Below, piece after piece: positions 14,602 through 62,835 of a DNA stretch of 64,000 bases. The notes under the pieces are model-generated. The model did not search any database and was not told the origin of the DNA. It saw only the letters and a list, made by a program, of their open reading frames with translations. Position 1 is the first letter of the stretch. Each line of letters starts with the position of its first letter. Position numbers and translations under genes: made by a program. Source of the stretch: Candidatus Omnitrophota bacterium (lineage in GTDB: Bacteria; Ratteibacteria; UBA8468; MWAK01); NCBI GenBank assembly GCA_043826355.1, contig JBDRQI010000005.1:48678-112677 (forward strand), given 5' to 3'.

Positions 14602-14622
14602 TGCTTAACCCTCATAAAATTT

Positions 14623-15276
14623 TTACAAAATATTTCGTCTAGCTATGAGAACATGCTGGTAAATACTTTTCGCTTCTTTAACCGAAAAACCTTTTTCTTC
14701 AAGATAAAACGTGATATCTGAAAGCGTTATTTTTCCAGATTCATGCCTTTTACCTTCAAGCGCGTGAATCTTATCTATAATTCGAAAACCTTCTTCCGTA
14801 AAATCACTTAGAACGAGTTTGCCGTTCCGCGAAAGGACGCGGACCAACTCGTCTACCGCCCGGTAAGGATTACGCATGTGATGAAGGACATTAACCGAAA
14901 ATACCACACCAAAACTTCCGTCGGTAAAACTCGTATGTTCGCCGTTTTCTATCCTGAAATTTGTTGATTTTTCAAGACCGAAATAGATTAAATTTAATCT
15001 TGCAAAACGCTGTTCCTTCTCTGAAACATCAAAAGTAAAAAACGAGTATCCCTGTTTTGCCAGCGCAAGCGCAAAATGTCCCTTCCCGGTCCCGGCCTCG
15101 AGAATTTTACCGTAAAAAGGTTTTGCCTGTTCTAAAATAAAATCCCGTTCCTTCTCCAGAGAGTAGCCGAAACTTTTATAAACCTTTTTTCGTGCAAGAT
15201 ATTCTCTATGGTTCTCGCGTATTTCCTCGCTGAATTTATATTTTTCTGAATCAAAAATCTCCGCCTCTTTATTCAT
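14623..15276 (-). CDS. class I SAM-dependent methyltransferase
   Basis: Motif I ILEAGTGKGHF; LHH post-I motif. Confidence 0.75.
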   Translation of the reverse strand: MNKEAEIFDSEKYKFSEEIRENHREYLARKKVYKSFGYSLEKERDFILEQAKPFYGKILEAGTGKGHFALALAKQGYSFFTFDVSEKEQRFARLNLIYFGLEKSTNFRIENGEHTSFTDGSFGVVFSVNVLHHMRNPYRAVDELVRVLSRNGKLVLSDFTEEGFRIIDKIHALEGKRHESGKITLSDITFYLEEKGFSVKEAKSIYQHVLIARRNIL

Positions 15277-15303
15277 GGATAAAACAGTTATTTTATATAA
15301 AAA

Positions 15304-16689
15304 TTATAGTTTTCCCGTAGCATCCTGAGCGGCCAGCACAACCGGGTACATTGTCGGCGCGGACGTCAAATACGGATGGGTTGCCATCTGCAATGTTTCC
15401 AGTTCACACAGAGAAACCCTTTGTTGTATCGCCATGCCGACGATGTTGATTATCTCGCCAGCCGATATGCCCCCGGAAATCTGACCGCCCATCAGTATCC
15501 CCGATTGACGGGAAAAAATCAGTTTTACCTTTATTTTACTTGCCCCCGGCAAGTTTTTCGGATGTTTATCCACGCCCTCTGTAGTACCGACGATAATTTC
15601 AAATCCTTCCTTCTTGGCGCTTGTTTCGGTAAGGCCCGCAGAACCCAAAACCAGACCGTCAATATAAGTAGAATAAATTGCGATAGTCCCTTTGTTTTCG
15701 CGAACAACCTTCAATTGATAAAGGTTAGCGCCCGCGACCCTTGCTTCGGCAGTGGCGGTGGAGGCAAGCATAACCGCAGCATCTCTGCGCGTATAAAAAT
15801 CCCTCTTACCCGCGCAATCACCGATGGCAAAAATATCGGGGTCAGAAGTGCGCATATACTCGTCCACCCATATTCCTTTGCCCCGTCCCAAATCCAAACC
15901 GGCATCAGTCGCTAATTTTGTGTTAGGAATTGCCCCTATTCCCAAAATAATACTGTCTACTTTCAATTCTTCGCCGCTTTCAAACCGCACTCCTTCAACT
16001 TTTTCCCGGCCTGAAATTTCCACAACTTTTGTGTTAAGGAAAATTTCAACGCCCCTATTTTTAAGTTTTTCTTCAACCAGCAAAGAAAAATCCCGGTCGA
16101 AAGAATTTGCCAACAAACGAGGAAGGGCTTCCACCAAATAAACATTGACCCCTTGAATTTTTGAAATCTCATCCGCGAATTCTATTCCGATGAACCCTCC
16201 CCCAATTATCAAAACGTTTTTTGCTTTTTTAATTTTGGCAACACAGGTTTTGAGATAATCCATGTCTTTGTATATGGGATACACTCCTTTTTTACCAATG
16301 CCGGGAATATTCGGAACAATGGGAAGAGAACCCGTCGCTAAAATCATTTTTTCATAAATATATTCATTTCCATTCTTTGTTTTCAAACTTTTTTTCTCTT
16401 TGTTAACAGTCGCCCCTTCGTCAATTACCACTTCAATATTATTCTTTATCAGGTTATCTGTTCCTAAAACATTATCCTGGGGATTTTCCAAACTGGAGAA
16501 CATATAGGGAATACCGCAGGGAATACAACCATTAGTTACGTTTTTTATCACCAAAATATTTTTATCCGAATAATATCTTCTGACCGTAATAGCGCATACC
16601 ATTCCCGCGGGACCGGAACCGACAACAAGTATATCCACCTTTTTACTCATAAAATCTCCCCCTTTTTCAGCGATTCCAGCATCACGCAA
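15304..16689 (-). CDS. CoA-disulfide reductase / NADH oxidase family FAD-dependent oxidoreductase
   Basis: FAD motif VGSGPAG, active-site region NGCIPCGIPY, second Rossmann motif IIGGGFIGIE. A CoA-binding protein follows. Likely start at the internal MSKKVD. Confidence 0.8.
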   Translation of the reverse strand: MRDAGIAEKGGDFMSKKVDILVVGSGPAGMVCAITVRRYYSDKNILVIKNVTNGCIPCGIPYMFSSLENPQDNVLGTDNLIKNNIEVVIDEGATVNKEKKSLKTKNGNEYIYEKMILATGSLPIVPNIPGIGKKGVYPIYKDMDYLKTCVAKIKKAKNVLIIGGGFIGIEFADEISKIQGVNVYLVEALPRLLANSFDRDFSLLVEEKLKNRGVEIFLNTKVVEISGREKVEGVRFESGEELKVDSIILGIGAIPNTKLATDAGLDLGRGKGIWVDEYMRTSDPDIFAIGDCAGKRDFYTRRDAAVMLASTATAEARVAGANLYQLKVVRENKGTIAIYSTYIDGLVLGSAGLTETSAKKEGFEIIVGTTEGVDKHPKNLPGASKIKVKLIFSRQSGILMGGQISGGISAGEIINIVGMAIQQRVSLCELETLQMATHPYLTSAPTMYPVVLAAQDATGKL

Positions 16690-17069
16690 ATACCGTGAAT
16701 TACTTTTATGCCGTTATCGTGGCAAAACTTGACGGCGGCCTGGCTTTCGGCCCCGGGCTGAAGCCATACTCTCTTTACGCCTTTCTGCAGGCATTCCTTT
16801 AAAATACTCTCCGTTACCGCCGGAGGAGTGACTAAATCAGCAATATCCACCGGATATAGAATATCGTTTATGGTTTTGTAACAGATTCTACCCTCAACTT
16901 CACGCATACTGGGATTAACGGGAAAAACTTCATAACCCTTAGCCAGTAAATTAATTAAAATCTTATAGGCGTATTTGGTCTTGTTCCTGAACGAACCTAC
17001 TACCGCGAATCTTTTTTGTTTCAAAAAATCTTCAACTAAATTTTCCATCTTTGATTGCATTAAAAACAC
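16647..17069 (-). CDS. CoA-binding domain protein
   Basis: FAVVGSFRNKTKYAYKI...PVNP; about 130 aa YccU-like. Confidence 0.75.
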   Translation of the reverse strand: MFLMQSKMENLVEDFLKQKRFAVVGSFRNKTKYAYKILINLLAKGYEVFPVNPSMREVEGRICYKTINDILYPVDIADLVTPPAVTESILKECLQKGVKRVWLQPGAESQAAVKFCHDNGIKVIHGICVMLESLKKGEIL

Positions 17070-17155
17070 TTTGAAATTTCCTGTACTCTAAAAAACTCAA
17101 ACAGGCGTGCCCTTAGAATAAGCTACGGTTATTTCTTTTTTAAGGCCGGCTTCTC

Positions 17156-17884
17156 TTACTCGAATTTTTTACGGAATAATTTTATCGCCGGTAAAATGAA
17201 AAAAACAAAAAAGCCGATAAGTGTCAGGGTATAAAGAAAAATCATTTTATTTGAAACAGCTGAAAATGATAATCGCAGGCCGTCCACCGTATAAGTAAGG
17301 GGTAAAACATAGGCAAAATGCCGTAAAACAAGCGGCATTTTAGATACGGGATAGACAACACCGCTCAAAAATATCAACAAGAAACGCGGGAGGTTAAGTA
17401 ATGTCTGGGCTTCAAAAACTTCTTTAACCATCACGCACAAAAGGGCGCCGAGAGAAGAAAATACAAAGAGCGAAGGAAAAATTATCAGAATAAGGTAAAG
17501 GATGTTTGGGTGGAGCCCAAGCACTACCACAGAAATTATTGTTACTGCAGTTGTCATCAAACAGCCGAAAACAACACCTCCCAAAATCTTTCCGAAAAGC
17601 ACCGCAGTTGTACTGATGGGCGCCAAAAGCAATCTCTCCAAAGAACCAAGCCGTAGTTCAAAGTTTATAACAACTGCTTCGGCAGCAGTGGTGCTGAAAA
17701 GAATCGTCATCGCAATCAATCCGGGCACTAACTCTTTAAAATCTCCGGGATTCCTTAAATAAAAAGCTAAAATCCAGGTAATCGGAAAGACGATACCCCA
17801 ACTGACTGACGGCGGTTTAAAATAGTATGTCTTTATGTCTTTTAAAACGATATAGAAAATACCCCGCAGGTTATCGCGCCACAT
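17156..17884 (-). CDS. ABC-2 family transporter permease
   Basis: Six-TM, about 240 aa, immediately downstream of an ABC ATPase. Confidence 0.75.
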   Translation of the reverse strand: MWRDNLRGIFYIVLKDIKTYYFKPPSVSWGIVFPITWILAFYLRNPGDFKELVPGLIAMTILFSTTAAEAVVINFELRLGSLERLLLAPISTTAVLFGKILGGVVFGCLMTTAVTIISVVVLGLHPNILYLILIIFPSLFVFSSLGALLCVMVKEVFEAQTLLNLPRFLLIFLSGVVYPVSKMPLVLRHFAYVLPLTYTVDGLRLSFSAVSNKMIFLYTLTLIGFFVFFILPAIKLFRKKFE

Positions 17885-18703
17885 TTAATGTCCTTTTTCA
17901 ATTGCTAAAATTTCCGGCTCTAAACCCGTAATTTTCATAAACGCTTCTTCCAATGATTTTTTATCAGTTTTTACCTTTAAAACTTGAGGAGTATCGAACA
18001 CCAAAATTCTCCCCTTTACGAGGATGGCCACACGGTCGCATAAAAGATCTGCCTCTTCTAAGTAATGGGTAGTAAGAAAAATGGTTATCCCTTGCCGGCG
18101 GAGATTAGATATCAAATTACGCAAAGAACGAGCAGCCACTACATCTAAGCCGGCCGTAGGCTCATCCAGAAAAAGAACTTCAGGATTATGAATTAACGCC
18201 GCTGCGACAGTCAAAGCCCGCTTCATACCGCGGGAAAATGTACGGAAGGAACTGTCTTTGCGCTCATAGAGTCGGAAGGTTTTCAGCAATTCTTCCGCTT
18301 TTTTCTTGCGCTGAGCGCGGGGAACACCATAAAGTTGCGCCATGAATATCAGATTATCCATTGCAGATAGTTCATCATAAAGATTAGAGATTTCCGGAAC
18401 AACCCCAATATGTTTCTTTATCTGCACAATTTGTGAACCAATGTCAAGTCCAAAAATAGATGCTTTTCCACCGGTGGGTTTAGAAAGCCCCGTAAGCATC
18501 CTTATAGTTGTAGTTTTTCCGGCGCCATTTGGACCCAAAAATCCAAAAATATCGCCTTTCTCAACTTCAAAATTGATATGGTCAACAGCGAGAAAATCGC
18601 CGTAATGCTTTGTTAAACCTGACGCTTTAATTATAATGTCCTTATTCATTTGTAGATACCCACGGGCACAGCCCGTGTAACTCAAAGCGGCTTTTAGAGA
18701 CAA
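17885..18703 (-). CDS. ABC transporter ATP-binding protein
   Basis: Walker A GPNGAGKTT, signature LSRGMKRAL, Walker B LFLDEPT. Confidence 0.9.
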   Translation of the reverse strand: MSLKAALSYTGCARGYLQMNKDIIIKASGLTKHYGDFLAVDHINFEVEKGDIFGFLGPNGAGKTTTIRMLTGLSKPTGGKASIFGLDIGSQIVQIKKHIGVVPEISNLYDELSAMDNLIFMAQLYGVPRAQRKKKAEELLKTFRLYERKDSSFRTFSRGMKRALTVAAALIHNPEVLFLDEPTAGLDVVAARSLRNLISNLRRQGITIFLTTHYLEEADLLCDRVAILVKGRILVFDTPQVLKVKTDKKSLEEAFMKITGLEPEILAIEKGH

Positions 18704-18737
18704 TTATTTGTTTTACTTTGTTATTGCGGAAGGATCT

Positions 18738-19058
18738 TTAAAAAGTCAAAAGTCTGTCGCTTTCCTTAACCAATTCGTACAAATCTTTCATCGTTGACAA
18801 AGGGCACGTCTCAGAACCGTTGGACTGCCGGATTTTCAGGCATGAGCCGCAAGCCAATATCTTTCCGCCGTTGTCAACGAAGGAACGCATCTGTTCCGTT
18901 ACCTTAAATTTATCGGTATCCAAAGATTCGCATTCCACGCCTTTGCCGAGCAAAAAAACCTTAACCTCGTCATTTTCTTTCCGGCTATAAACACCGAGCC
19001 GAAATGCGTTCCAAACGGTCTCCGAATCATTTGAATAAATAATTATCCCTAACTTCAA
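18738..19058 (-). CDS. DsrE/DsrF-like family protein
   Basis: About 105 aa; DsrE-like fold with conserved Cys (ACGSC). Confidence 0.6.
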   Translation of the reverse strand: MKLGIIIYSNDSETVWNAFRLGVYSRKENDEVKVFLLGKGVECESLDTDKFKVTEQMRSFVDNGGKILACGSCLKIRQSNGSETCPLSTMKDLYELVKESDRLLTF

Positions 19059-19105
19059 AAGGCCTCCTCTTTTTTATCTAATACGAACGCATTAAATCTT
19101 TTTAT

Positions 19106-19175
19106 GTAGGGGTCGGATTCATCCGACCCGCGGGCTTGATAAATCAAGCCCCTACAAAATCCTTATGTAAATTTA
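19106..19175. repeat. Family-B palindromic repeat (GTAGGGG...GCCCCTACAA..TGTAAATTTA)
   Basis: Nested hairpins ggtcggattcatccgacc and gggcttgataaatcaagccc. Related copies at 30557-30606 and 31495-31570. Confidence 0.65.
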
Positions 19176-19886
19176 GAGATTCAGGGTCTGCCCTGCTTTT
19201 ATCGGAATAAAACGGTCCCCGTATCTTTCCTTGAAAATTTCCTCGGCAACTTTGCCGCTGCAATGAGTAGGACCCACCTTTTCGATTTTCATCTTTTGAA
19301 ACCGTTTGGCTATAATAGATATAATTCTTTTATCCTCTTCCATCAAATGAAAACCGCCGAACACCAGATATATCGTTTCACCCGGAAATTTCCTTCGGAC
19401 TCTTTCCAGGATTTTAAGAATCCCGGGATGGGCGCACCCGGTCATTACCGTAAGACCGTTCTGCGTCTTCACGATAAGCGCCTGTTCAGGCATATCACTT
19501 CCGTGATAAACGCCCGGTATCTCCCCTGTGATAAAAATATCTTTTGCAATCTCCTTGAATTTTTCCGTTTCAACAAAAATCCCCTGCAACTTTTTTACTT
19601 TTTCCTTAAACTCTGCGCTGAAATGCGGGCAGGCATAAACGGTGATTCCCTTTCTTCTGGCCAGTATTTCCCATAATCCTCCGGCATGGTCCCAGTGGTC
19701 ATGAGAAATTACCACCGCTTCAAATTCCGCTAAATTTATTCCCAGTTTATCAATATTCTCAATGAGCCATTGCCCGTTTTCACCGGTATCAAATAAGATT
19801 CTATTATCAACCAGGAACGAAACACCCCACCCGATATGAAGATTCTTTGCACAAGAATCTTCATCAAAAATAACCTTTATTTCCAT
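19173..19886 (-). CDS. MBL-fold metallo-hydrolase
   Basis: HxHxDH motif (VISHDHWDHAGG). Confidence 0.8.
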   Translation of the reverse strand: MEIKVIFDEDSCAKNLHIGWGVSFLVDNRILFDTGENGQWLIENIDKLGINLAEFEAVVISHDHWDHAGGLWEILARRKGITVYACPHFSAEFKEKVKKLQGIFVETEKFKEIAKDIFITGEIPGVYHGSDMPEQALIVKTQNGLTVMTGCAHPGILKILERVRRKFPGETIYLVFGGFHLMEEDKRIISIIAKRFQKMKIEKVGPTHCSGKVAEEIFKERYGDRFIPIKAGQTLNL

Positions 19887-46341: not shown

Positions 46342-47397
46342 TTATCCAAAAAGCCTAATGGCTATGACGAGAATCGCAAAATGAAGTGAACCCCTATCCT
46401 TGGACAGACAGGTTAGAATAACATGGCTGGACCGGCGAATTATTTTGTTCTTTGAAAAGTAACCGATTTTCAAACTCCTCCGGGGCAAGTACCCCAGGGA
46501 AGAATGCAACCTTTTTTTATTATACACCGCTTCCAGGAAATAGGGAATCCGTCCCTGAACATCCGCGAGGTTTCGTTATTTCCAGAGGTAAACTTCTTCC
46601 GCTTTCAGAGTTTTAAAGAAACTTTCGGCGGTGGCGTTATCGTAAGGGTTGTCTTTTCGGGACATACTGATTTGAAAACCGCAGGTTTTAAGCCGGTTTG
46701 TATAATCGCCGGACGCATACTGCACCCCGCGATCGGAATGGTGGATTGTTCCCGGAGCGGGATTTCTCCGGCAGATAGCCATATCCAGGGCGGTAAGCGC
46801 CAACTGGGTATCCAAACTCCTGGAGACGCAGTAACCGACGACCCGGCGGGAGAAGGCGTCCAGGATAACCGCCAGATAAACAAAGCCCGATTCTATCCGA
46901 TATAGGTAATGTCGGATACCCAAACCTGATTTGTCGCTGTTGGCGGGCGCTCTTTTGTCAGGTTCGGATAGATTGGATAAGCATGGTTGGAGTCGGTGGT
47001 GGTTACCCAGCGTTTCTTAACGGATACCAAGAGGGAACTTTCCCGCATGATGCGGAGGACCCGCTTGTGGTTTACGCAAGATCCGTCTATCTTTAAGTTG
47101 ATGGGTTATATGCCGGTATCCGTATTTGGAAAATTCCAGGGCGACCTCTTCTATCCGGTCCCGAAGATCGTTGTCCGTTTTCATCTTTACCCGGTTTTCC
47201 GGCCGGTAGTAATAGGTGCTGCGGGGAATCTTTAACATTTGGCACCGCCTTTTGACGCAGCCGTGGTATCGGGGGGAAAAGCCGGTAACAAGCCTTCTCT
47301 TTTCCGGGTTTGTTCGATCGTGGCGGAAATGGCGTTTTTTAAAAAGCTCTTGATTTCTGCTGTAATTATACTGGAATCGCCACTCTTCCGACCACAA
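46342..47397 (-). mobile_element. IS3 family transposase pseudogene (orfB split over at least 3 frames, orfA missing)
   Basis: HTH_21 fragment (KIPRSTYYY), DDE core (ILDAFSRRVVGY), C-terminal YNKKRLHSSLGYL, each in a different frame. Slippery A7 near 47335. Confidence 0.75.
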
Positions 47398-47584
47398 AGC
47401 CGGAATCCTTGGGAACTTTCAGGTGTTCCTCCTTCATTCCCTCAAGATGAAGTTCTATTGCCTCCTCAACATTCTTCATCGATTCTTCAATCGTTTCACC
47501 TTGTGAGTAGCAACCGGGAAGAGCCGGAACGTCAACCCAATATCCACCTTCTTCCGCTTCGTGAAAAATCACTGTGTATTCCAT
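47366..47584 (-). CDS. hicB: type II toxin-antitoxin system HicB family antitoxin
   Basis: About 70 aa UPF0150 (YTVIFHEAEEGGYWVDVPALPGC). Confidence 0.75.
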   Translation of the reverse strand: MEYTVIFHEAEEGGYWVDVPALPGCYSQGETIEESMKNVEEAIELHLEGMKEEHLKVPKDSGFVVGRVAIPV

Positions 47585-47592
47585 TTTGCTCC

Positions 47593-47817
47593 TTATAGAA
47601 GTTCTAAAAACTGAGATTCGGTAAGGCCTGCTTTTCGCAGGGCGTCCTTTAGCAACCCAATTTTCAACTCTTTTGTTACCGGAATTGTTATCAGTTGTCC
47701 GTTTGTCATCTTGATGTTAACGTGGCTTCCTTTAGTGGACTTTTTTACGCCTCCTGCCCGTAGAAAGGCTTTTACGGCCGCCTCTCCTTGGATGCTTCTA
47801 AGTTGCTTGCCGCCCAT
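47593..47817 (-). CDS. hicA: type II toxin-antitoxin system HicA family toxin
   Basis: About 74 aa YcfA/HicA (TKGSHVNIKMTNGQLITIPV). Confidence 0.75.
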   Translation of the reverse strand: MGGKQLRSIQGEAAVKAFLRAGGVKKSTKGSHVNIKMTNGQLITIPVTKELKIGLLKDALRKAGLTESQFLELL

Positions 47818-49996: not shown

Positions 49997-50722
49997 ATGG
50001 TAAAAATAATTGCCCACCAAGGATTTTCCGGAAGGTATCCCGGAAATACGGAGATTGCGTTTCAGAAAGCCCTTGCCCTCAACGTCGATGCCGTTGAATT
50101 TGACGTTCACCTCTCCGCAGATGCAGCGTTAATCATATGCCACGACGGGGACGTGGACAGAACATCCGATGGTTCCGGTAAAATCAGTCAACTGACGCTG
50201 CCGGAAATTAAAAACTTGGACGCCGGCGGCTGGTTCGGAAAGGAATTTGAGAAACAGCGTTTTTTAACGCTTCAAGAAGCGCTTGATGTCCTCGGCACCA
50301 AAATCAGGCTTAACATCCACGTCAAGACCTATGAATTTGACCGGGAAAAAATAACGCCGCTAATCGTTAAGGAACTGGAACGCAGAAATCTCCTGCGCCA
50401 GGTGTTCATCGCCTCTGGCGAAGAAACGATTAAACTGGTCAAAAAGATTCAGCCGAAACTGGAAATCTGCAACCTTTCCAGGAAACCCGAAAACACTTAC
50501 ATTAAGCGTTCTCTCTCGGTCGGGTGCTACATCCTGCAGCCGGAAAATATACAAGTAAATCAATCATTCGTTGAAGAAGCCCACCGCCACGGTATGGAGG
50601 TCAACCCGTTTTACGCCGATGATATTGCCGAGATGCGCCGGCTGATTCAATGCGGGGTAGACGGAATATTAACGAATTACCCGGATGTGTTGTTAAGAGT
50701 CCGAAAGGCAATCTCCTCATAA
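49997..50722 (+). CDS. glycerophosphodiester phosphodiesterase
   Basis: HQGFSGRYPGNTEIAF...EFDVHLSADA...HD. Confidence 0.85.
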   Translation: MVKIIAHQGFSGRYPGNTEIAFQKALALNVDAVEFDVHLSADAALIICHDGDVDRTSDGSGKISQLTLPEIKNLDAGGWFGKEFEKQRFLTLQEALDVLGTKIRLNIHVKTYEFDREKITPLIVKELERRNLLRQVFIASGEETIKLVKKIQPKLEICNLSRKPENTYIKRSLSVGCYILQPENIQVNQSFVEEAHRHGMEVNPFYADDIAEMRRLIQCGVDGILTNYPDVLLRVRKAISS

Positions 50723-50847
50723 AAATTGCGTTTTTGATTAAATAAACTTAAAAAACGAACTTTCTTGGTACTCAATTTTGAGGAACCGGATCGGGTGCCA
50801 AGTTTCGACCGCCAGAGCGACGGCGGCATATCAGGACTACGGACACT

Positions 50848-51198
50848 ATGCCAGGAAAAATGTTGTCGGAACAGATTAAAAAAATCAACGAATCCACACA
50901 CCTCAGTGAAACAGATAAGAACCGCCTCATTTCGGAACTGCTCAAACATGCTGCGCCGCAACCCGACAGCCCGGAATTCAATCCGGCAGGCGGATATATC
51001 CTCAGTTTCCTCTTTCCCCCGCTGGGCTTATTCATCGGCGGCCATTACCTGTTCCGCTATGGGGAAGACGGGGTTAAACCCGGCATAATCTGTATCACGC
51101 TCACTTCTATTTCACTGGTAATCGAACTCCTGCTCTTCAAAAACATGCTCCGGGCTCTCCTGTCCGGCCTTTCCTCCTTGAAAATCCCGGGCATGTAA
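50848..51198 (+). CDS. hypothetical membrane protein
   Basis: Two predicted TM helices; no family recognised. Confidence 0.3.
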   Translation: MPGKMLSEQIKKINESTHLSETDKNRLISELLKHAAPQPDSPEFNPAGGYILSFLFPPLGLFIGGHYLFRYGEDGVKPGIICITLTSISLVIELLLFKNMLRALLSGLSSLKIPGM

Positions 51199-51245: not shown

Positions 51246-52619
51246 ATGAAATTCTATATCAGGACGTTCGGGTGCCAGATGAACCAGGCCGACAGCGCCT
51301 ACCTGTTCGGTCGCCTCATTGAGGCCGGGTACCGGAAGACGGAAGACCCGGAAGAGGCACAGGTCATCATCTTCAATACCTGCAGCGTCCGGCAACACGC
51401 AGAGGAGCGGCTCTTCCAAAACCTGAAAACGTTGCAGCCTCTGAAAAAGAAGAGGCCGGAGTTGATTATCGGCCTGATCGGTTGCATTCCGGCCCTGCGC
51501 CGGGAGATGCTGTTCCGCTCTTTCCCTTACCTTAATTTTCTGGCCGGTCCAGAAAGTCTGGCCATGATTCCGGACTTGATTTCCCGCAGTAAAAATGGCG
51601 CGCAGATTGCGGTCTTTGACTCCAAATTAGATTCCTATGCCTGCCCTCAAGCGCAAAGGAATATCAGCGCTTTTCTACCGATAATCATTGGCTGCGACAA
51701 CTTCTGCAGTTACTGCGTGGTACCACTTACCCGGGGCAGGGAAAAGAGCCGACCGGCCGAAGATATTCTGACAGAGGCGAAAAAAATGGTTTTCGGCGGC
51801 GTCAAAGAGATAATCCTCCTGGGTCAGAACGTCAATTCCTACCGGGAAACGACAGGGACGAGATTCCCGCTTACAACATGCGGGAATGACATCGTTTCGG
51901 GTCGGATAAATCCGCCCCCCGGAAATAAAGGGATCGAAATCGATTTTCCGGAACTCCTGTCCCGGATAGCCGGGCTATTCGGCATCTTGCGACTGGGTTT
52001 TATGACCTCCCACCCCAAGGACGTCTCCCCGAAACTTTTTAAAGTAATCGCCGAACATTCAAGCATCTATCGCCACCTGCACCTCCCCTTGCAGAGCGGT
52101 TCCGACTCCATCCTGCAGACAATGAACCGCGGCTACACCGCCGCCCATTACCGGCAGAGAATGGGAGAAGCCAGGGAAATTGTTCCCGGGTTGTCGCTCA
52201 CTTCGGATGTCATCGCGGGATTTCCGGGCGAAACGGAAGATGACTTTAATAAAACCTTATCGTTAATTGAGGAAATACAATTTGATGACTTGTTTGCCTT
52301 TAAATATTCGGACCGCCCCAAAACTAAAGCCGAAAGACTGGGCGGCAAGATTCCGGAAAAGACGAAAGAGGAACGCTTGGCCAAACTCTGGAAACTGCAG
52401 GACGGAATCTCCCTGAAAAAAAACCTGGAGATGAAAGGTAAAACTTGCGAAGTTCTCTTGCTGAGCGAGAGCTGGAAAAGACCGGGTTTCCTGATTGGCA
52501 AGACGGAAAATGGAAAGAAAATTCTCGTTTCGGAAAACGCAAAATCAGTCGGTTCTTTAGTTCGGGTTCAAATTACTTCGGTTGACCGCCGCCTGCTCTA
52601 CGGGGTTGCCGAAAAATAA
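51246..52619 (+). CDS. miaB: MiaB/RimO-family tRNA methylthiotransferase with an in-frame repeat-derived insertion
   Basis: MTTase N-terminal domain FGCQMN, radical SAM motif CDNFCSYC, C-terminal TRAM domain. About 33 extra codons at 51852-51950 carry the intergenic repeat families. Confidence 0.8.
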
Positions 52620-52633
52620 ACAGGACACGCGCC

Positions 52634-53665
52634 ATGAAAAATTTTACGGTTAAAGCCAAAATGATATGTACGCTCGGTCCGGCTTCATCAAGTGAAACTG
52701 TTATAAGAAAAATGATGCGCGCCGGCATGGATGTTGCGCGTCTTAACTTTTCGCACGGAAAACCCCAGGAATTGCTTCACAGAATAAAACTCGTCCGGCT
52801 TTTAAACACGAAACACCGCAGACGCATCAAACTTCTCGGCGACCTTCAGGGCCATCGGATAAGGATAGGCCAATTCGTTGCTCCGTTAGAGCTTAAAAAG
52901 CGCCGGATAGTTTGGCTTTCCCGCCAAAAGACAAAAAGCGAAAACGCAAAAATACCATTCGATTACCAGGGACCGTTAAGCGGCATTAAAAACGGCTGCC
53001 AAATATTTATAGACGACGGTAATATCGCTTTGGAAGTAATCGGCCGGTCTAAAAACAGCCTGAAGGCCCGGGTAATAGCCGGCGGGCTATTAAAGGAGCG
53101 CAAAGGCGTAAATATTCCGGGGGCACAGCTTGAGTTCGGCGGTATAAGCAAAAAAGACGCCCGGGATATACTTTTTTGCGAAAAAACCGGTGTTGAATAT
53201 ATTGCGCAGTCATTCGTGCGTACAAAAAAAGATATTTTAGAGGTAAGAAAACTTCTCCAGCCGGGTTCGTCCTGTCAGGTTATCGCTAAAATTGAATGCC
53301 GGGAAGGCATAAAAAATATTGACGATATAATCAAAGTTTCAGACGGCATTATGATTGCGCGCGGAGACATGGGCGTATCGCTCCCTGTTTACGAAATTCC
53401 TATTATTCAAAAGATGATTATCAAAAAATGCAATCGCGCCGGGAAATTTGTCATTACCGCCACCCAGATGCTTGAGAGTATGACGGATAACCTTCGCCCT
53501 ACCCGCGCAGAGGTAACAGACGTGGCAAACGCCATAATAGACGGCACTGATTTTGTGATGCTCTCGGCAGAGACGGCAGCGGGTAAATACCCCGCCGAAG
53601 CGGTTACGATGATGAATAATATAATAAAATTTACGGAAATAAATTCGAGTAAATTGTTTTTATAA
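52634..53665 (+). CDS. pyruvate kinase-like barrel-domain protein (no C-terminal domain, divergent active-site residues)
   Basis: NFSHG and MIARGDMG motifs present, but [12 protein letters not shown] replaces the canonical LDTKGPEIR; stops after the barrel. Confidence 0.55.
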
Positions 53666-53700
53666 GCACCCGGTTCAACGCCAACAAACACGGAGAAAAT

Positions 53701-56418
53701 ATGAAAGAATTAAAATGGTATCAGCATTCAATAACGGAAGTTCTTTCGCATCTCCAGGTTACGGAAACGGGGCTTGCCGAACAGGAGGCGCAGGCAAGGC
53801 TGGCTGAACACGGGCCAAACCAGTTGGAAGCAAAAAAGAAGGAAAGCCGGCTTTTAATCTTCATCAAGCAATTCAAAAGTCCGCTTATATACATTCTGTT
53901 ATTTGCCGCCTTGATATCGTTTTTTGTCGGTAAAACCGTCAACGCGCTGGTTATCCTTTTCGTTCTATTTTCCAACGCAATAATCGGTTTCATACAGGAA
54001 TCAAAAGCCCGGAGCACCATGGATTCCCTCAAGGAACTCTCTTCGCCAAAAGCCAGAGTAATGCGCGCGGGTGAAGAAACGGAGATACCCACCAAAGACA
54101 TCGTGCCGGGAGATATCATCCTGGTGGAATCGGGAAGCAGGGTTCCTGCGGACGCGCGGATTATTGAGTCGGTAAGGCTCCAGATCGATGAAGCGGCGCT
54201 TACCGGAGAATCCCAGCCGGTCTATAAAATCATTGATTCCATCAAACTGGAAACCACGGTTGCCGACCGGCTGAACATGCTCTTTGCCGGAACGGTTGTC
54301 GCCTCGGGCCGGGGCAAGGCGGTGGTCATCTCCACGGGCATGAATACGGAAATCGGCAAAATTGCCGGCATTATTCAATCGGAACCGGAGACCAGAACTC
54401 CGCTCCAGCGCCGCATGGAGGCTTTCGGCAAGGTTATCATCTTTATCGTCCTAGCGCAGGTAACCTTTGCATTTATCGTCGGATGGGTTCTGCGGGGTCT
54501 GCCGTTTTACGAGATATTCCTGGTTGTCTTAAGCCAGACGGTCTCTTCCATACCGGAAGGCCTGCCGGTGGCGGTAACGGTGGCCCTGGCGGTAGGCATG
54601 CAGAGAATGGCAAAAAAGAAGGCTTTTATCAGGAAACTGGCGGCGGTGGAAGGGTTGGGCAGCGCCACTATTATTTGCAGCGATAAAACCGGAACCCTTA
54701 CGAAGAACGAGATGACTTCGCGGCGTCTGGCCACCATGAAGCAAACAATAGAAATAACCGGAGCCGGATACCGGCCTCAGGGTAAATTCTTATTAGACGG
54801 CAACGAAATAAACCCGCTTGAAAATAAAGAAATAAACCTGCTTCTCAAAACAGCTTCTCTCTGCAATAATGCCCAGTGGAAGGAGAGGCCGGATGATGAC
54901 GGCGGGGTAAAAAGTTCGGGAGACCCGACGGAAATCGCTTATCTGGTAACGGCCGTTAAAGCCGGAATTAGCCCGGATAAACTTAATGAAGAATTTCCCA
55001 GAATCGATGAAATTCCTTTTGAGTCCCATATTCAGATGATGGCAACCAGGAATAGGTCGGGTGATAATAAAAATATGATCTCGGTCAAGGGCGCTCCGGA
55101 AAAGATTGCGGACCTTTGCGGGTATTATCTTCAAGACGATAAAACAACGGAATTAACCGATTCTCTGCGCAAGGAAATATTATTACGTTCGGAGAAAATG
55201 GCCAAGGATGCGCTCCGGGTTTTAGCTTTCGGTTTCAGCGAAGAAGACAACGCGCCGGGCGGCGCATTTGACTGGGATTCTTTAAAAAGAAAAATTGTTT
55301 TCGCGGGCTTAATCGGCAATATTGACCCGCCGCGGCCGGAAGCCAGAGAAGCGATAAAAATATGCAAAAACGCAGGTATTAAAATAGCGATGATTACCGG
55401 AGACCATCTCTCCACGGCCGAAGCGGTGGCGGTTGAATTGGGCATAATGGAAAAGGGCGACGAAGGCATTGCCGGTGACCTATTAGACAATATGACCGAA
55501 AAAGAATTAGAAGAGGTGGTGACAAATTTCACGGTCTTCGCCCGAATCGAGCCGAAACACAAATACCTGATAGTCAAGGCCCTGCAGAAACACGAAGTGG
55601 TGGCCATGACCGGCGACGGGGTAAACGACGCGCCGGCTTTGGCGGCGGCCGATATCGGGGTGGCCATGGGGATAACCGGCACCGACGTGGCCAAGGAATC
55701 GAGCAGTATGGTTATCGCCGACGATAATTTTGCCACTATCGTGGATGCGGTTGAAGAAGGCCGGGGCATAACCGCCAACATGCGCAAAACCATCCTGTAT
55801 CTTCTCTGTTCCAGCAGCACCGAAATTTTAGTCCTGCTGACCACCCTGGCCATCGGGGTGCCTTTACCGTTATTTGCCCTGCAGATTTTATGGATAAACC
55901 TCGTTACCGACGGCGCCCTTACGGTTAACTTGATTATGGAGCCGAAAGAGGAGGTAATGAACCATCCGCCGGATAAGAAAAATGAACTTTTGCTGAACAA
56001 GAGGTTGATGGGGCTGCTGATTTTCCGCGCTTCCATTATGGCGGCGGGAATAATCGGACTCTTTATTTACGAGTTGACCAGGGGTATGCCTTTAATCTAT
56101 TGCCGCAGCGTTGCCTTTACGACGCTGGCGGTTACCCAATGGCTGAACGGAATCAACTGCCGTTCCACTACAAAATCTATCTTTAAAATGCCGTTTTTAG
56201 GCAATAAGTACTTGATTGCCGGCCTGACGGCGGCAATAATCTTACAGATATCGGTTATTTATATTCCTTTTCTGCAGAATATCTTTTCTACGGTTACGCT
56301 TGATTCAACGGACTGGATTAAAATCTTACTGGTGGGCAGCGGCGTATTCTGGCTGGAAGAGGTGCGGAAATTCATCGCCGGCCGCCGCCTTTCCGGCGCA
56401 AACGAAAATTTAAGATAA
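53701..56418 (+). CDS. cation-translocating P-type ATPase (Ca2+-type, P2)
   Basis: DKTGTLT, TGDHLSTA, GDGVNDAPAL; 905 aa. Confidence 0.9.
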   Translation: MKELKWYQHSITEVLSHLQVTETGLAEQEAQARLAEHGPNQLEAKKKESRLLIFIKQFKSPLIYILLFAALISFFVGKTVNALVILFVLFSNAIIGFIQESKARSTMDSLKELSSPKARVMRAGEETEIPTKDIVPGDIILVESGSRVPADARIIESVRLQIDEAALTGESQPVYKIIDSIKLETTVADRLNMLFAGTVVASGRGKAVVISTGMNTEIGKIAGIIQSEPETRTPLQRRMEAFGKVIIFIVLAQVTFAFIVGWVLRGLPFYEIFLVVLSQTVSSIPEGLPVAVTVALAVGMQRMAKKKAFIRKLAAVEGLGSATIICSDKTGTLTKNEMTSRRLATMKQTIEITGAGYRPQGKFLLDGNEINPLENKEINLLLKTASLCNNAQWKERPDDDGGVKSSGDPTEIAYLVTAVKAGISPDKLNEEFPRIDEIPFESHIQMMATRNRSGDNKNMISVKGAPEKIADLCGYYLQDDKTTELTDSLRKEILLRSEKMAKDALRVLAFGFSEEDNAPGGAFDWDSLKRKIVFAGLIGNIDPPRPEAREAIKICKNAGIKIAMITGDHLSTAEAVAVELGIMEKGDEGIAGDLLDNMTEKELEEVVTNFTVFARIEPKHKYLIVKALQKHEVVAMTGDGVNDAPALAAADIGVAMGITGTDVAKESSSMVIADDNFATIVDAVEEGRGITANMRKTILYLLCSSSTEILVLLTTLAIGVPLPLFALQILWINLVTDGALTVNLIMEPKEEVMNHPPDKKNELLLNKRLMGLLIFRASIMAAGIIGLFIYELTRGMPLIYCRSVAFTTLAVTQWLNGINCRSTTKSIFKMPFLGNKYLIAGLTAAIILQISVIYIPFLQNIFSTVTLDSTDWIKILLVGSGVFWLEEVRKFIAGRRLSGANENLR

Positions 56419-56432
56419 ACCGAATAACATAA

Positions 56433-56918
56433 TTATCGTTTCGGTTGACCGCCGCTTGCTCTACGGAAAAACTGCCTGAGTGCAAAAGCAAGTATCGCTA
56501 AAAGGGCTAATTCCGACGAAAGTTTTAATCTGCTCCGGTCAAGAATTTCGTCAACGGCATTACCGGACCTGATAATCTCTATGCGGGAGGCGTGAATTCC
56601 GGTCTGCCCGTAATGGACAGGGCAGGCGTCGTAAAAGGTCCCAGTTACCCTCACCCTGTCTCCGACAATCTTGTAACGGCCCAGGTGTTTAATCTGGTCT
56701 AAATATTCGCTGGGGGCGTAAACGCCGATGGCGCTATTGCCGTCGTTCAGGTTAACCCAGCCGTATTCCCCCCTCAACATTAAATCGCCAATCGCTTCCC
56801 CTTCGGTCACTATTACCCTGCCGTCATAAAAACGGCTCTGGGTAATAAGGTCGGAGATGGAGACGGGCGCAGGCGCAATAATGTTACCGCCGAGCGTTAA
56901 AAACCAAAGTATCAACAT
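56433..56918 (-). CDS. hypothetical secreted/membrane-anchored protein
   Basis: N-terminal signal-like segment and a C-terminal TM helix. The 3' end overlaps the direct repeat at 56440-56466. Confidence 0.4.
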   Translation of the reverse strand: MLILWFLTLGGNIIAPAPVSISDLITQSRFYDGRVIVTEGEAIGDLMLRGEYGWVNLNDGNSAIGVYAPSEYLDQIKHLGRYKIVGDRVRVTGTFYDACPVHYGQTGIHASRIEIIRSGNAVDEILDRSRLKLSSELALLAILAFALRQFFRRASGGQPKR

Positions 56919-60406: not shown

Positions 60407-60480
<74 letters not shown>

Positions 60481-60494
60481 CAACCTCCTGCTTT

Positions 60495-60989
60495 CTAAAA
60501 TCTTTCCCAGTGCAAAACTTCGGAAAGCGGCCTCTTGGCCGGGTTGGGTAAATCCCCTTTCGGATAACCAATGGCAATCAGGCTGATTAATTTATAACCG
60601 CTGGGCACGCTCAGGAAACTTAAAACCTTATCCGCGTATGGTTTTTTATCCCCGGCAACCCAACAGGAGCCCAGACCCAGTTCCGTGGCGGCCAGCAGGA
60701 TATTTTCGGTTGCAGCCGAACCATCCTCCAAGTAATATTTGGTCTCTTTGGCGACCACCGCAATACAGGCGCCGGCATCCTTGATAAACTTTCCGTGGTC
60801 GGTAATATCAGCCAGTTCTTTCCTTCTTGCCGGGTCAACAATGACGATAAATTCCCAGGGTTGGATATTGATGGCCGTTGCCGCCAGCCTCCCGGCATCA
60901 ACAATCTTTTCCAGCAGATTCCTGGCTACCGGGTCCGGACGATAGTTCCGTACGCTTCTCCGTTTTTCGATTAACTCCAACCCGTTCAT
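60495..60989 (-). CDS. nitroreductase family protein
   Basis: RRSVRNY...; about 165 aa. Confidence 0.8.
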   Translation of the reverse strand: MNGLELIEKRRSVRNYRPDPVARNLLEKIVDAGRLAATAINIQPWEFIVIVDPARRKELADITDHGKFIKDAGACIAVVAKETKYYLEDGSAATENILLAATELGLGSCWVAGDKKPYADKVLSFLSVPSGYKLISLIAIGYPKGDLPNPAKRPLSEVLHWERF

Positions 60990-61095
60990 TTTTTGCCTTT
61001 AAGAGTTTAAAATAATAATTTTATCCTTTTTCGGGTGATTTGGCAAGAAACAACACCGTGTTGTATAATTTAAAGTTAAAGATACGGAGGAACTT

Positions 61096-61593
61096 ATGGT
61101 TTTAAAAGGAAGGGCGCATATTCTTGGCGATGACATCAACACCGATTATATCATATCCGGAAGATACAAGTTTAAGACACTGGATAAGAAAGAACTGGCC
61201 AGCCATCTTCTTGAAGATTTAGACCCGGAATTCGTAAAAAAAATTGCCCCGGGAGATATCATTATAGCCGGTAAAAATTTTGGGTGCGGAAGCAGCCGAG
61301 AACAGGCACCGCTAGCAATCCAATATGCCGGTGTCGCCGCCGTCTGCGCGCAAACTTTTGCCCGGATCTTTTTCCGGAACAGCATTAACGTTGGCCTACC
61401 ACTAATTGAATGCGATACTTCCGGAATCGAGGAAGGCGACAAAATCGAACTCAATTTCGGCGGAGGTAAACTGGTCAACATCACCCAAAAAACAACCATT
61501 TGCTTTAAACCTCTCCCGAAAATAATGCTTTCCATACTTTCCGAGGGAGGCCTGGTTCCCTATTTCCAGAAAAACCGTCAATTTCAACTCTAG
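61096..61593 (+). CDS. leuD: 3-isopropylmalate dehydratase small subunit-like (LeuD/aconitase swivel domain) protein
   Basis: GDDINTDYIISGRY, GKNFGCGSSREQAP. Confidence 0.75.
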   Translation: MVLKGRAHILGDDINTDYIISGRYKFKTLDKKELASHLLEDLDPEFVKKIAPGDIIIAGKNFGCGSSREQAPLAIQYAGVAAVCAQTFARIFFRNSINVGLPLIECDTSGIEEGDKIELNFGGGKLVNITQKTTICFKPLPKIMLSILSEGGLVPYFQKNRQFQL

Positions 61594-61599
61594 AATATT

Positions 61600-61674
61600 T
61601 CCGGCGTAGCGCAACGGTAGCGCGGCTGGCTGTTAACCAGTAGGTTGTAGGTTCGAATCCTACCGCCGGAGCCA
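61600..61674 (+). tRNA. tRNA-Asn (anticodon GTT), CCA encoded
   Basis: Acceptor TCCGGCG/CGCCGGA, anticodon loop CTGTTAA, T-loop TTCGAAT, 3' GCCA. Confidence 0.8.
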
Positions 61675-61756
61675 CGTAAAATCCGCCTTCGGCGGATCAC
61701 GTGGTCCCGTGATGATTCGCAGAATCATTTTACGGGACAATATATCAATTACAAGT

Positions 61757-62032
61757 ATGTATTATGTTTATATTCTGCGTAGCCTGAAAGATAACCGGTT
61801 TTACACCGGTTACACGGAAAACATCCAAAGAAGATTCAAGGAACACAATGCAGGTCAAGAAAAATCCACCAAATATCGCCTGCCTTTTGTCTTGGTCTAT
61901 TTTGAAGCCTACACAGATAAACGGGATGCTCTCGGTAGAGAGGAATTCCTGAAAAGCGGTTCAGGTAAGAGATATTTGAAAAAACAACTCAAGAATTATC
62001 TGACTGAAAACGATGGGCTGAATTTAATATAG
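61757..62032 (+). CDS. GIY-YIG nuclease family protein
   Basis: YVYILRS..RFYTGYTENIQRRFKEHN. Lies between tRNA-Asn and a partial tRNA-Asn 3' repeat. Confidence 0.75.
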   Translation: MYYVYILRSLKDNRFYTGYTENIQRRFKEHNAGQEKSTKYRLPFVLVYFEAYTDKRDALGREEFLKSGSGKRYLKKQLKNYLTENDGLNLI

Positions 62033-62045
62033 TGAAAACCGAGCG

Positions 62046-62134
62046 GTACCGAATCCTACCTCCGGAGCAAGCCCAATAACCGCACTATTCCTACGTTTAT
62101 GATTGTACCCTGGTAGGACGTTCGAACCTTTTTC
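62046..62134 (+). repeat. tRNA-Asn 3'-end-like fragment plus ~75-nt repeat unit R1
   Basis: cgaatcctacc[t]ccggagc matches the tRNA-Asn 3' end. R1 is about 85% identical to R2 at 63010-63099. Confidence 0.6.
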
Positions 62135-62227
62135 TAAAAACCCAAACTAAAATAGACCTATCCCAATTTTAAAATTGACTTTTCTTTGCGTAAGTAATAG
62201 AGTATCTATTATAAATAGAGGTGTAAA

Positions 62228-62835
62228 ATGTTTAAAAAAACAGGATTCACCCTTATCGAACTCCTCGTCGTAATGGCAATTATATCAATTCTTGCCGCAA
62301 TGCTACTGCCGGCTTTAAGTAGCGCCAGGGAAAGTGCAAGACGAGTAAATTGTATTTTGGTAATTTGAAACAAATCGGCTTGGCGGTAGCGATGCGCGGA
62401 CAAGATGGCGTGGACTCACCTTCAAACCCTTTTGATTTTGCGACACCGTTTATAAGAATCGGCGCAGACCAATATACAGGACTTGGCCGTTTATATCCAA
62501 ACCGTACCAGCAATATAAGAATATTCAGCTGTCCTGGAAGTACCAAAGCAAAACCCGATGATGTTCAAAAAGCGCTTGATGGAACCGGAGATGTGGTTGG
62601 AAACTATAATTATCGAATAAAAACCGGTGGAACTACGCCACTTCCTACATTAGTTATTGCGATGAGTTATAATTGTAAAAGCCAAAACAGATATGACCAT
62701 ACGGGAAAATGGGTATCCCTGTTATATTATGACGGAAGCGCGAGAGGCGTAAATAATTCTGACGGAAAATTGACAAACTTATCCGATACAGATGAGGAGT
62801 TTGAAAGAACTTTTTTAGAGGCGGGTACAAAGTAA
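62228..62835 (+). pseudogene. prepilin-type DUF1559 protein, frameshifted
   Basis: [29 protein letters not shown]...RVNCIL then stop. [12 protein letters not shown]... continues in another frame (62350-62835). Confidence 0.65.

Follow-up and report, generated by a model that had tools for sequence, protein, structure and literature searches.

A pyruvate kinase and P-type ATPase gene pair between direct repeats of the miaB 3' end in Omnitrophota: a probable old insertion allele

The window, by which we mean the whole 64,000-nucleotide stretch of Candidatus Omnitrophota DNA analysed here, carries a run of neighbouring genes comprising a fucose isomerase-family gene, a glycerophosphodiester phosphodiesterase (GDPD) gene, an open reading frame (ORF) of 116 aa, miaB, a convergent gene of 161 aa, and the genes for TrkH and TrkA. 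Between miaB and the 161-aa gene lies a unit of two further genes, bracketed by a direct repeat. The features of the locus are as follows; empty-site relatives are those in which the unit is absent.

51279–52619, plus strand: miaB, the target gene, encoding a tRNA methylthiotransferase with Pfam UPF0004, Radical_SAM and TRAM domains
52577–52603 (possibly from 52572), plus strand: repeat copy 1, coding the last TRAM-domain residues of MiaB (10 residues)
52604–52633, plus strand: left junction, where GGTTGCCGAAAAATAA supplies the new MiaB tail and stop
52634–53665, plus strand: short pyruvate kinase (PK), first gene of the unit, with the A and B domains only and no C-terminal domain
53701–56418, plus strand: type IIA P-type ATPase (putatively Ca-type), second gene of the unit, with six Pfam P-type ATPase domains
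56419–56434, plus strand: right end of the inserted DNA, AACCGAATAACATAATT, the native ATPase 3' flank, homologous to the flank in locus L089 by alignment
56433–56918, minus strand: convergent 161-aa gene, called 'DNA-binding protein' in one NCBI record
56440–56466 (possibly from 56435), plus strand: repeat copy 2, a relic of the MiaB end that now codes, on the minus strand, for the C-terminal tail of the 161-aa protein
56467–56479, plus strand: what is left of the original miaB tail and its stop codon, AAAAACTGCCTGA, which reads KTA and stop and is colinear in alignments with the functional miaB ends of empty-site relatives

The two copies of the repeat (TTCGGTTGACCGCCGCCTGCTCTACGG at 52577–52603 and TTCGGTTGACCGCCGCTTGCTCTACGG at 56440–56466) are identical at 26 of 27 positions. 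They are the only matches in the window when up to three mismatches are allowed, and none of 100 dinucleotide-preserving shuffles contained a match. The duplication is perhaps as long as 32 nt (52572–52603 versus 56435–56466, 28/32 identical), given that ATCGTTTCGG, which stands left of copy 2, is also the miaB sequence in the relative L083. Read in the plus frame, copy 2 gives 12 residues of the old MiaB end followed by TGA at 56477–56479; on the minus strand it provides the last codons of the 161-aa gene, ending FRRASGGQPKR and stop. Immediately left of the repeat, copy 1 has ATTACT and copy 2 has ATCGTT, each matching the miaB allele of different relatives; an origin from two lineages and later divergence would account for this difference about equally well. 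Spacers of 14, 35 and 14 nt separate the repeats and genes, and there are just two ORFs between the repeats. An earlier note on this DNA had described a repeat at the miaB 3' end, a second copy that is a relic of the MiaB C-terminus, and only two genes in between; all of this stands, and the relic includes the old stop codon.

MiaB passes the cut-off of the NCBIfam MiaB equivalog TIGR01574 over the whole protein (405.9 bits against 355.3), and the gene is called at 446 aa in an independently assembled Logan contig. The 161-aa protein has no match in Pfam, NCBIfam or PDB, and its distant homologues have unrelated tails. The kinase matches PF00224 over positions 3–328 of 328 (E = 2e-111) and aligns to residues 3–336 of the 470-aa E. 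coli PykF structures; against TIGR01064 it scores 433.8, above the cut-off of 306.4, yet covers only positions 2–337 of 476. The C-terminal alpha/beta (regulatory) domain (PF02887) is absent, the protein stopping at model position 337/476 and PykF residue 336/470. Its relatives are also short (335–345 aa). The earlier note had called this gene divergent, a description that we do not find apt, since the protein is 77–84% identical to more than 120 protein clusters, the majority of the source-named ones from Omnitrophota, and passes the equivalog cut-off; it is simply without the C-terminal domain. In the ATPase, Cation_ATPase_N, E1-E2, the P-type nucleotide-binding domain, HAD and Cation_ATPase_C are all there. 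Its designation as a putative Ca-type pump comes from these domains, the top two NCBIfam equivalog models, PMR1 type (711 bits, cut-off 798) and SERCA type (636 bits, cut-off 703), both scoring below cut-off. At the amino acid level it is 94% identical to the copy in locus L084 and 81–83% identical to those in L089 and L090. The inserted genes, each with a ribosome-binding site of its own, begin 14 nt behind the miaB stop; neither junction shows an evident promoter or terminator, and the genes are presumably read through from the miaB operon.

Thirteen loci, the window included, allow the site to be compared across related lineages: two are occupied, five are clean empty sites, one carries a palindrome scar and four carry short scars. 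L087 is not among the five clean empty sites, being too short to show the junction. Wherever the contig reaches, TrkH and TrkA lie on the right at all 13 loci. The clean empty sites (L001, L083, L085/L086, L093 and L096) consist of the left flank, a single repeat copy and the right flank, without the module. In these loci miaB is followed directly by the convergent gene, as the earlier note had predicted, and the 3' end of the 161-aa gene overlaps miaB by 44 nt (positions 810–853 in L001, 5390–5433 in L085 and 1068–1111 in L096). A target-duplicating insertion at the 3' end of miaB, also proposed there, is supported by five empty-site relatives with one repeat copy. The earlier reading had missed that the target is a 44-nt convergent overlap and that the insertion appears to be old, polymorphic and repeatedly lost with scars. 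The empty-site miaB stop sits within conserved codons of the 161-aa gene (...LRQF...), and the window has these bases after copy 2, suggesting that the overlapping state preceded the insertion. MiaB of the empty-site relatives ends in QTA or KIA before the stop; relative to these, the last four codons of the window gene (VAEK) and its stop are new.

L084, from a different sample, is the other occupied lineage; its ATPase DNA is 93% identical to that of the window. Its left junction (...CTACGG followed by GGTTACCGGAAAATAAA) and right junction (TAATTACCGTTTCGG...) are both as in the window, and it is without the kinase gene. Copy 1 of the window is identical at 27/27 positions to copy 1 of L084 and also to the single copy of L096, whereas decay has left copy 2 of L084 at 21/27. 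The occupied L084 nevertheless has the empty L096 as its closest relative (92% identity in the 3' part of miaB). Short scars in L094, L088 and L097 comprise GGTTGC(C) and a partial second ...CTCTA/CTCGG remnant. The scar in L095 contains GGTTGCCAAAGAATAAAATTGA, as in the left junction of L084, within a 20-bp palindrome (dG -26.6 kcal/mol, z = -7.3). GGTTGCC and the next bases of the window left junction are common to the scars of L095, L094, L088 and L097. Such scars in empty relatives indicate probable repeated loss of the unit; they could instead mean that the target already had a 12-nt stretch beginning GGTTGCC, which copy 2 must then have lost.

When JGI metagenomes were scanned with the core as an exact pattern, only two further loci were recovered, L093 and L094, and a search with the ATPase returned no further occupied relatives above 83% identity. 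No outgroup for polarity was found, the distant Omnitrophota miaB loci (L002–L080) having no 161-aa homologue nearby. Single-gene trees are poorly resolved and mutually conflicting. The tree of the 161-aa protein was rejected as a basis for mapping allele states, the protein being too short and the tree poorly resolved and in conflict with the miaB and trkH identities. We infer the probable order of states, and how many gains and losses there were, solely from nested sequence features.

The two module genes are native to the phylum. At other loci in Omnitrophota, PK and a downstream ATPase recur as a conserved gene pair, which lies behind a glycogen phosphorylase gene (L089 and L092) or behind a rhodanese gene (L090/L091), and the module shares homology with L089 and L092 in its left spacer, internal spacer and right flank. 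In alignments to L089 and L092, homology with the native phosphorylase–PK spacer of other Omnitrophota begins at about 52617; the true left edge of the inserted DNA is ambiguous and falls somewhere in 52604–52620. A derivation of the left-junction bases GGTTGCCGAA from the 3' end of the phosphorylase gene in the donor context was rejected, as the similarity is not significant. With up to seven mismatches allowed, the 27-mer is not found in the native PK–ATPase loci L089–L092. Module GC (0.45–0.50) is ordinary for the window, and the codon usage divergence of the ATPase (0.032) and PK (0.111) falls within the window range, every ORF of at least 150 aa having been compared. Both genes have their closest relatives in Omnitrophota. 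A foreign island, as the earlier note had supposed, was therefore rejected on the GC, GC3 and codon-usage divergence of all window ORFs of at least 150 aa and on the taxonomic spread of homologues. Fragments resembling the 5' part of miaB behind the L089 ATPase prompted us to consider a local swap of neighbouring genes; this was rejected since the empty-site relatives have no PK–ATPase upstream of miaB.

Between the two carriers the insert is less diverged than its flanks, a comparison that consists of a single carrier pair. At third codon positions, the window is identical to L084 at 86.4% of sites in the ATPase, 80.2% in the 3' part of miaB and 66.5% in the 161-aa gene, and a sliding identity profile rises from 81 to 91% through miaB, stands at 93–96% in the ATPase and falls from 84 to 78% beyond. 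For other lineage pairs, third-codon identity in TrkH and TrkA is 65–83%. The ATPase is thus younger than its flanks between both occupied lineages, suggesting that the allele spreads by homologous recombination.

A search of the window revealed no recombinase or transposase domains, terminal inverted repeats or hairpins, on which grounds a mobile element was rejected. Neither the core nor the left-junction motif recurs elsewhere in the window or in 98 loci, and inverted matches between the two 80-nt module ends reach 7 nt at most. We therefore favor, with a probability of roughly 0.7, an old insertion allele, variable among related lineages, which is neither a mobile element nor a foreign island. 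Ancestrally in this Omnitrophota clade, a tail-to-tail overlap of 44 nt would have joined miaB to the convergent 161-aa gene. A copy of the native unit of PK and type IIA P-type ATPase, its own short spacers included, would have been inserted within this overlap, leaving 27–32 nt of overlap on both sides of the insert. With overlap bases on both sides, MiaB would have retained the end of its TRAM domain and gained a new four-codon tail, and the 161-aa gene would have retained its tail, now coded by the relic copy. The duplication may have arisen through repair of a staggered break or through replication template switching; in the latter case replication would exit at ...CTACGG, copy the unit and re-enter approximately 30 nt upstream. 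Given that a recombinase, a transposase, terminal inverted repeats and a site with dyad symmetry are all absent, we infer that break repair or template switching best explains the duplication. Later, the allele would have moved between lineages by homologous recombination in flanking genes, the kinase gene would have been lost in one lineage, and the whole unit would have been lost in others, either precisely (recombination between the repeats, restoring the overlap) or imprecisely, leaving scars.

Several known systems share part of this pattern: (i) Genomic islets, which are fixed-site presence/absence segments between core genes exchanged by flank recombination, likewise have a fixed site with patchy presence, no mobility genes, ordinary composition and an insert younger than its flanks (here in two carriers). 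Like recombination-spread islets, the present locus is occupied or empty in close relatives with conserved flanks. It differs in that a 27–32-nt target duplication flanks the insert, two formerly overlapping genes have been split, and the cargo is a housekeeping-type operon of the same phylum rather than accessory or foreign genes. (ii) Integrase islands and prophages, with their attL and attR sites, also show direct repeats of tens of bases, insertion in the 3' end of a conserved gene, a target gene kept intact with a new terminal tail and a relic end at the far junction. The direct repeats, one in the target 3' end, are present here, whereas a recombinase gene and a core belonging to the element itself (attP) are not. 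There is no integrase, excisionase or remnant of either, the 3.8 kb are filled by two metabolic and transport genes, the repeat is missing from the donor contexts and has no dyad symmetry, and the losses are irregular. (iii) Transposons also bracket their insert with directly duplicated target, usually of 2–15 bp. Here the duplication is 27–32 nt, and neither a transposase with terminal inverted repeats nor a short target-site duplication of fixed length is seen; the duplication is longer than those that classical transposases make and has no direct precedent that is testable here. (iv) The 28-bp sites of Xer/dif or pdif, with inverted 11-bp arms around a 6-bp spacer, are not matched, since in TTCGGTTGACC GCCGCC TGCTCTACGG the arms are not complementary. 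(v) As to integron cassettes, no inverted repeat or terminator-like hairpin occurs in 56380–56470, and there is no integrase. (vi) Insertions by break repair or template switching, such as microhomology-mediated break-induced replication and homology-facilitated illegitimate recombination, are enzyme-independent copy-and-paste events of a chromosomal segment with flanking duplication of arbitrary length, as here. Later deletions with small remnants and inverted duplication are typical products (compare the L095 palindrome). These are mechanisms and not families, and junction microhomology here is at best 4–5 nt (AATTA) and ambiguous.

The 'repeats' might instead be alleles of two lineages rather than a duplication made at insertion. 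By homology-facilitated illegitimate recombination, which is described for bacteria (PMC3240628), DNA of a related lineage already carrying miaB–PK–ATPase would have been captured on one side, with a homologous join within miaB and an illegitimate join approximately 30 nt upstream of the resident miaB end. Consistent with this, the locus demonstrably recombines, and the bases left of copy 1 (ATT ACT) are those of L096 and L084, those left of copy 2 (ATC GTT) are those of L083, and L097 has ATT GTT. Moreover, the window 161-aa gene pairs with that of L083 in a neighbor-joining tree, whereas the window MiaB is least like that of L083 (70% aa, 77.6% DNA identity). However, the allele argument involves three discriminating bases, roughly a 1-in-64 coincidence, no lineage with miaB–PK–ATPase minus the relic copy was found, the other PK–ATPase pairs all lying in unrelated contexts, and an earlier event putting the unit beside miaB would still be required. 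We consider such a capture rather unlikely. That the structure stems from faulty assembly, through a chimeric join or a collapsed duplication, or that the repeat is due to chance, has a negligible probability: the source is a metagenome-assembled genome, but a separate and independent Logan assembly, from run SRR26275510, matches the window at 100% identity along 13,525 bp that span both junctions, the divergent relative L084 from another sample has the same two junctions, and zero matches are expected by chance.

Flanking direct repeats at the 3' end of a conserved gene, patchy presence and absence in close relatives and the apparently precise empty site of L096 beside the occupied L084 would also be expected of a site-specific cassette, with the 27-bp core as attachment site and the recombinase encoded elsewhere, in the manner of an integrase-less island, an Xer/dif-dependent element or an integron cassette. 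This is very unlikely, given that no recombinase lies in or beside the unit and there is no space for a decayed one, that the core has no dyad symmetry and the unit ends have no attC-like hairpin or inverted repeats, that the would-be donors, the native PK–ATPase loci, are without the 27-mer, that copy 2 of L084 has drifted to an extent unexpected for a functional site, and that the scars are irregular, as expected of illegitimate deletion. There is a very slim chance that the core is a functional site for a recombinase acting in trans, with a kinase–pump cassette repeatedly integrated and excised at the miaB/161-aa junction and the scars as excision footprints; if true, this would be a recombinase-in-trans cassette system in Omnitrophota, carrying a housekeeping operon. 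Long palindromes are known break sites, and the L095 palindrome has 23–25 nt of its left arm and loop in common with the left junctions of both occupied loci. A hairpin of the L095 kind might once have separated miaB and the 161-aa gene, with the overlap arising from hairpin deletion, the module entering at a break in the palindrome loop and copy 2 being synthesized in repair. This order of events is highly improbable: the right arm is untraceable in the occupied loci, copy 2 is joined downstream exactly as in the overlap alleles, the near-perfect 20-bp stem (one mismatch) looks recent, and more events are needed than for an overlap followed by insertion and then scarring.

If the locus is an old insertion allele, as we favor, it is a tidy but ordinary case of genome rearrangement that leaves the current view of genome evolution unchanged. 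It offers a clean natural record of two overlapping convergent genes being separated without damage to either, the overlapped bases having been duplicated so that each gene has one copy, and related lineages preserve the states of intact overlap, occupied site, palindrome scar and short scars. For annotation, it cautions against taking every repeat-flanked segment at the end of a gene for a foreign island. It also suggests that a core metabolic operon of uncultured Omnitrophota can relocate without mobile-element machinery and then spread or be lost by ordinary recombination.

The 27-mer TTCGGTTGACCGCCGCCTGCTCTACGG at 52577-52603 recurs at 56440-56466 with a single C/T difference. With three mismatches allowed, the window contains no third copy, and 100 dinucleotide-preserving shuffles yielded none at all, which bears out the repeat-flanked module described in the earlier note. 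Between the copies lie only genes for a 343-aa pyruvate kinase and a 905-aa type IIA P-type ATPase, with spacers of 14, 35 and 14 nt around and within the module.

Features of the module and its flanks
51279-52619, plus strand: miaB, a genuine MiaB (TIGR01574, 405.9 bits against a cut-off of 355.3)
52577-52603, plus strand: repeat copy 1, coding for the end of the MiaB TRAM domain
52634-53665, plus strand: pyruvate kinase gene
53701-56418, plus strand: P-type ATPase gene
56440-56466: repeat copy 2, reading the former MiaB end in the frame of copy 1, then TGA at 56477-56479
56433-56918, minus strand: 161-aa gene, its last codons (...FRRASGGQPKR*) supplied by copy 2

The 161-aa protein has no match in Pfam, NCBIfam or the PDB. 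Run SRR26275510, independently assembled in Logan, gives sequence that is 100% identical across 13,525 bp including both junctions, so misassembly is very unlikely.

Relatives of the window organism, a Candidatus Omnitrophota bacterium, reveal the site without the module. At locus L001, whose MiaB is 75% identical to the window's, miaB ends at 853 and the 161-aa homologue at 810 on the opposite strand, TrkH and TrkA come next as in the window, and neither kinase nor ATPase is present. A three-way alignment shows L001 to consist of the left and right flanks seen in the window, joined by a single copy of the repeat. The clean 44-nt overlap, with miaB running directly into the convergent gene, is also found at L083, L085/L086, L093 and L096. 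At these empty sites the miaB stop codon sits within the conserved ...LRQF... codons of the 161-aa gene, and the bases of this stop region are also present right after copy 2 in the window. This agreement argues that the overlapping arrangement is older than the occupied one and that copy 2 is the former end of miaB. A relic MiaB end and an insertion that duplicated its target, the core of what the earlier note had proposed, are supported.

That note also called the segment foreign and the kinase divergent, neither of which is supported. In GC content, GC3 and codon-usage divergence, neither gene lies outside the range spanned by the window's other 52 ORFs, and the ATPase is among the most typical in composition. 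More than 120 protein clusters share 77-84% identity with the kinase, and the majority of those with a source name are from Omnitrophota; all are about 335-345 aa and, like the window kinase, comprise only the catalytic A and B domains. The pair stands with native spacers elsewhere: in L089 and L092 the gene ahead of it is one for glycogen phosphorylase, in L090/L091 one for a rhodanese. From about 52617 the window can be aligned to the spacer between phosphorylase and kinase in L089 and L092, and the 16 nt past the ATPase stop align with the L089 ATPase 3' flank. The unit is therefore native.

The site is also occupied in a second lineage, L084, from another ENA sample, whose 161-aa protein and ATPase share 78% and 94% identity, respectively, with those of the window. 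Its left junction, ...CTCTACGG|GGTTACCGGAAAATAAA, gives the MiaB tail GVTGK* (GVAEK* in the window), and its right junction reads TAATTACCGTTTCGG... The insertion is probably a single event common to both. L084 lacks the kinase gene, the stretch from the shared left junction to the ribosome-binding site of the ATPase being shorter by about 1.07 kb (L084:3314-3335, the counterpart of window 52620-53700). Since the window's kinase-ATPase spacer is homologous to that of L089, the pair probably arrived as a unit, with the kinase lost later in L084.

Between the window and L084, third-codon identity is 86.4% in the ATPase, 80.2% in the miaB 3' part and 66.5% in the 161-aa gene; across other lineage pairs it is only 65-83% even in the very conserved TrkH and TrkA. 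Sliding identity climbs from 81 to 91% along the last part of miaB, holds at 93-96% over most of the ATPase and, beyond copy 2, declines from 84 to 78%. The ATPase being less diverged than its flanks, together with mutually inconsistent single-gene similarities, indicates that the occupied allele has been exchanged between lineages via its conserved flanks.

Other relatives carry apparent scars of the module. After ...CTCTACGG come GGTTGCCCTCTA in L094, GGTTGCGCTCGG in L088 and GGTTGCCTGCGCCCCCTA in L097/L098, then the shared ACAAACTG... These scars open with the 6-7 bases that start the occupied left junction and continue with a piece resembling the repeat 3' end (CTCTA, GCTC..GG or TGC...CTA), the pattern expected from deletion of the unit and most of copy 2. 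L095 keeps more, GGTTGCCAAAGAATAAAATTGA, which matches the L084 left junction and is followed by an inverted copy of the same bases. The resulting 20-bp palindrome between miaB and the 161-aa gene (L095:8319-8365; JGI 3300022818, Ga0255658_129306), with arms GGGGTTGCCAAAGAATAAAA and TTTTATTTTTTGGCAACCCC, has a single mismatch and a 7-nt loop (dG -26.6 kcal/mol, z = -7.3). One arm codes for the MiaB terminus with its stop (GVAKE*), the other for that of the 161-aa protein (GVAKK*). MiaB of L095 was called at 420 aa, with no TRAM match. Taking out the 36 nt inside the palindrome leaves a close match to the 12-nt scars seen in L094 and L088. Of 20 clusters, judged by the tail of the 161-aa protein, about 8 have short scars, 2 have the palindrome-type tail and 2 are occupied. 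The most economical order is overlap, insertion with duplication, palindrome scar and short scars. Exact reversion, by recombination of one repeat with the other, is possible too; L096, the nearest relative of occupied L084 (92% in the miaB 3' part), nonetheless has an empty site.

The module contains no recombinase or transposase domain and is too tightly packed to hold a decayed one. The longest inverted match between its ends is 7 nt, the core read directly has no dyad symmetry, the right end has no hairpin, and neither the core nor the left-junction motif occurs further in the window or in the native kinase-ATPase loci. Transposon, Xer/dif element and integron cassette were each rejected on their defining tests; an integrase-borne island at a gene 3' end is similar in structure, yet the module fails the tests that define that class as well. 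It fits a small islet whose presence varies among relatives and which is spread by homologous recombination. Its unusual features are the split convergent-gene overlap and a cargo that is a housekeeping-type operon.

The simplest origin would be enzyme-independent copying of the native unit into the overlap, by staggered-break repair or replication template switching, with some 30 nt copied twice during insertion. The left boundary is uncertain, lying somewhere in 52604-52620, as is the duplication length (27, 32 or more). The main rival, one-sided homologous capture (concept in PMC3240628) from a lineage that already had miaB beside the unit, would account for the different miaB alleles matched by the bases immediately left of each copy, but such a donor arrangement was not found. 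Under the copying origin, the duplication kept the MiaB TRAM-domain end, which is under strong constraint, as shown by a copy 1 that does not differ among the window, L084 and L096. The 161-aa tail is evidently less constrained, since that of L095 differs and copy 2 of L084 has drifted to 21/27, so the duplication may have arisen as a side effect of the mechanism and not through selection.

Several other segments also stood out. In L089:6443-7330, directly downstream of the kinase-ATPase pair, two MiaB-like N-terminal fragments (39 and 36 aa, each with a GCQMN motif), both ending in the same ~45-nt stretch GATGTCATARTTCTWAAMAAGAATAATTAAGTATTGTGTCCCC, flank an acetyltransferase gene; the arrangement resembles a further insertion with a duplicated gene fragment on either side. 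Upstream of miaB, a second variable slot (49997-51198), between a fucose isomerase-family gene and a 116-aa ORF, holds a glycerophosphodiester phosphodiesterase in the window, a URO-D family gene in L085:6903-8337 and L096:2630-4064, and a Polbeta-type nucleotidyltransferase pair in L095:9793-11056. A minus-strand HicA/HicB toxin-antitoxin pair (47366-47817) adjoins the fucose isomerase-family gene, in the same position as in L095. Over about 14 kb (5625-19886) GC drops to 0.37-0.44 (GC3 0.36-0.46), against ~0.49-0.55 elsewhere in the window; among the products encoded there are several SAM methyltransferases, a RACo-type activase, an ARMT1-like phosphatase, a cation-efflux protein fused to a Nitro_FeMo-Co domain and a pyridine nucleotide-disulphide oxidoreductase. 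Within 60407-62835, tRNA-Arg(TCT) (60407-60481) and tRNA-Asn(GTT) (61600-61674) precede a 161-aa ORF at 62350-62835 that has no Pfam match and whose codon usage deviates more than that of any other ORF in the window (divergence 0.277, GC3 0.33), which may mark a small acquired segment beside a tRNA gene.

Across all the Omnitrophota contexts inspected, the gene directly behind that of a pyruvate kinase without the C-terminal domain encodes a P-type ATPase (window 52634-56418; L089:2520-6308; L090:8001-11731; L092:8001-11769), which suggests that an enzyme making ATP and a pump driven by it are functionally paired. In L090 the two genes share 4 nt, and the L092 ATPase is just 39% identical to the window's. 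The absence of the kinase from L084 implies that this organism has another kinase or that the gene is dispensable there.
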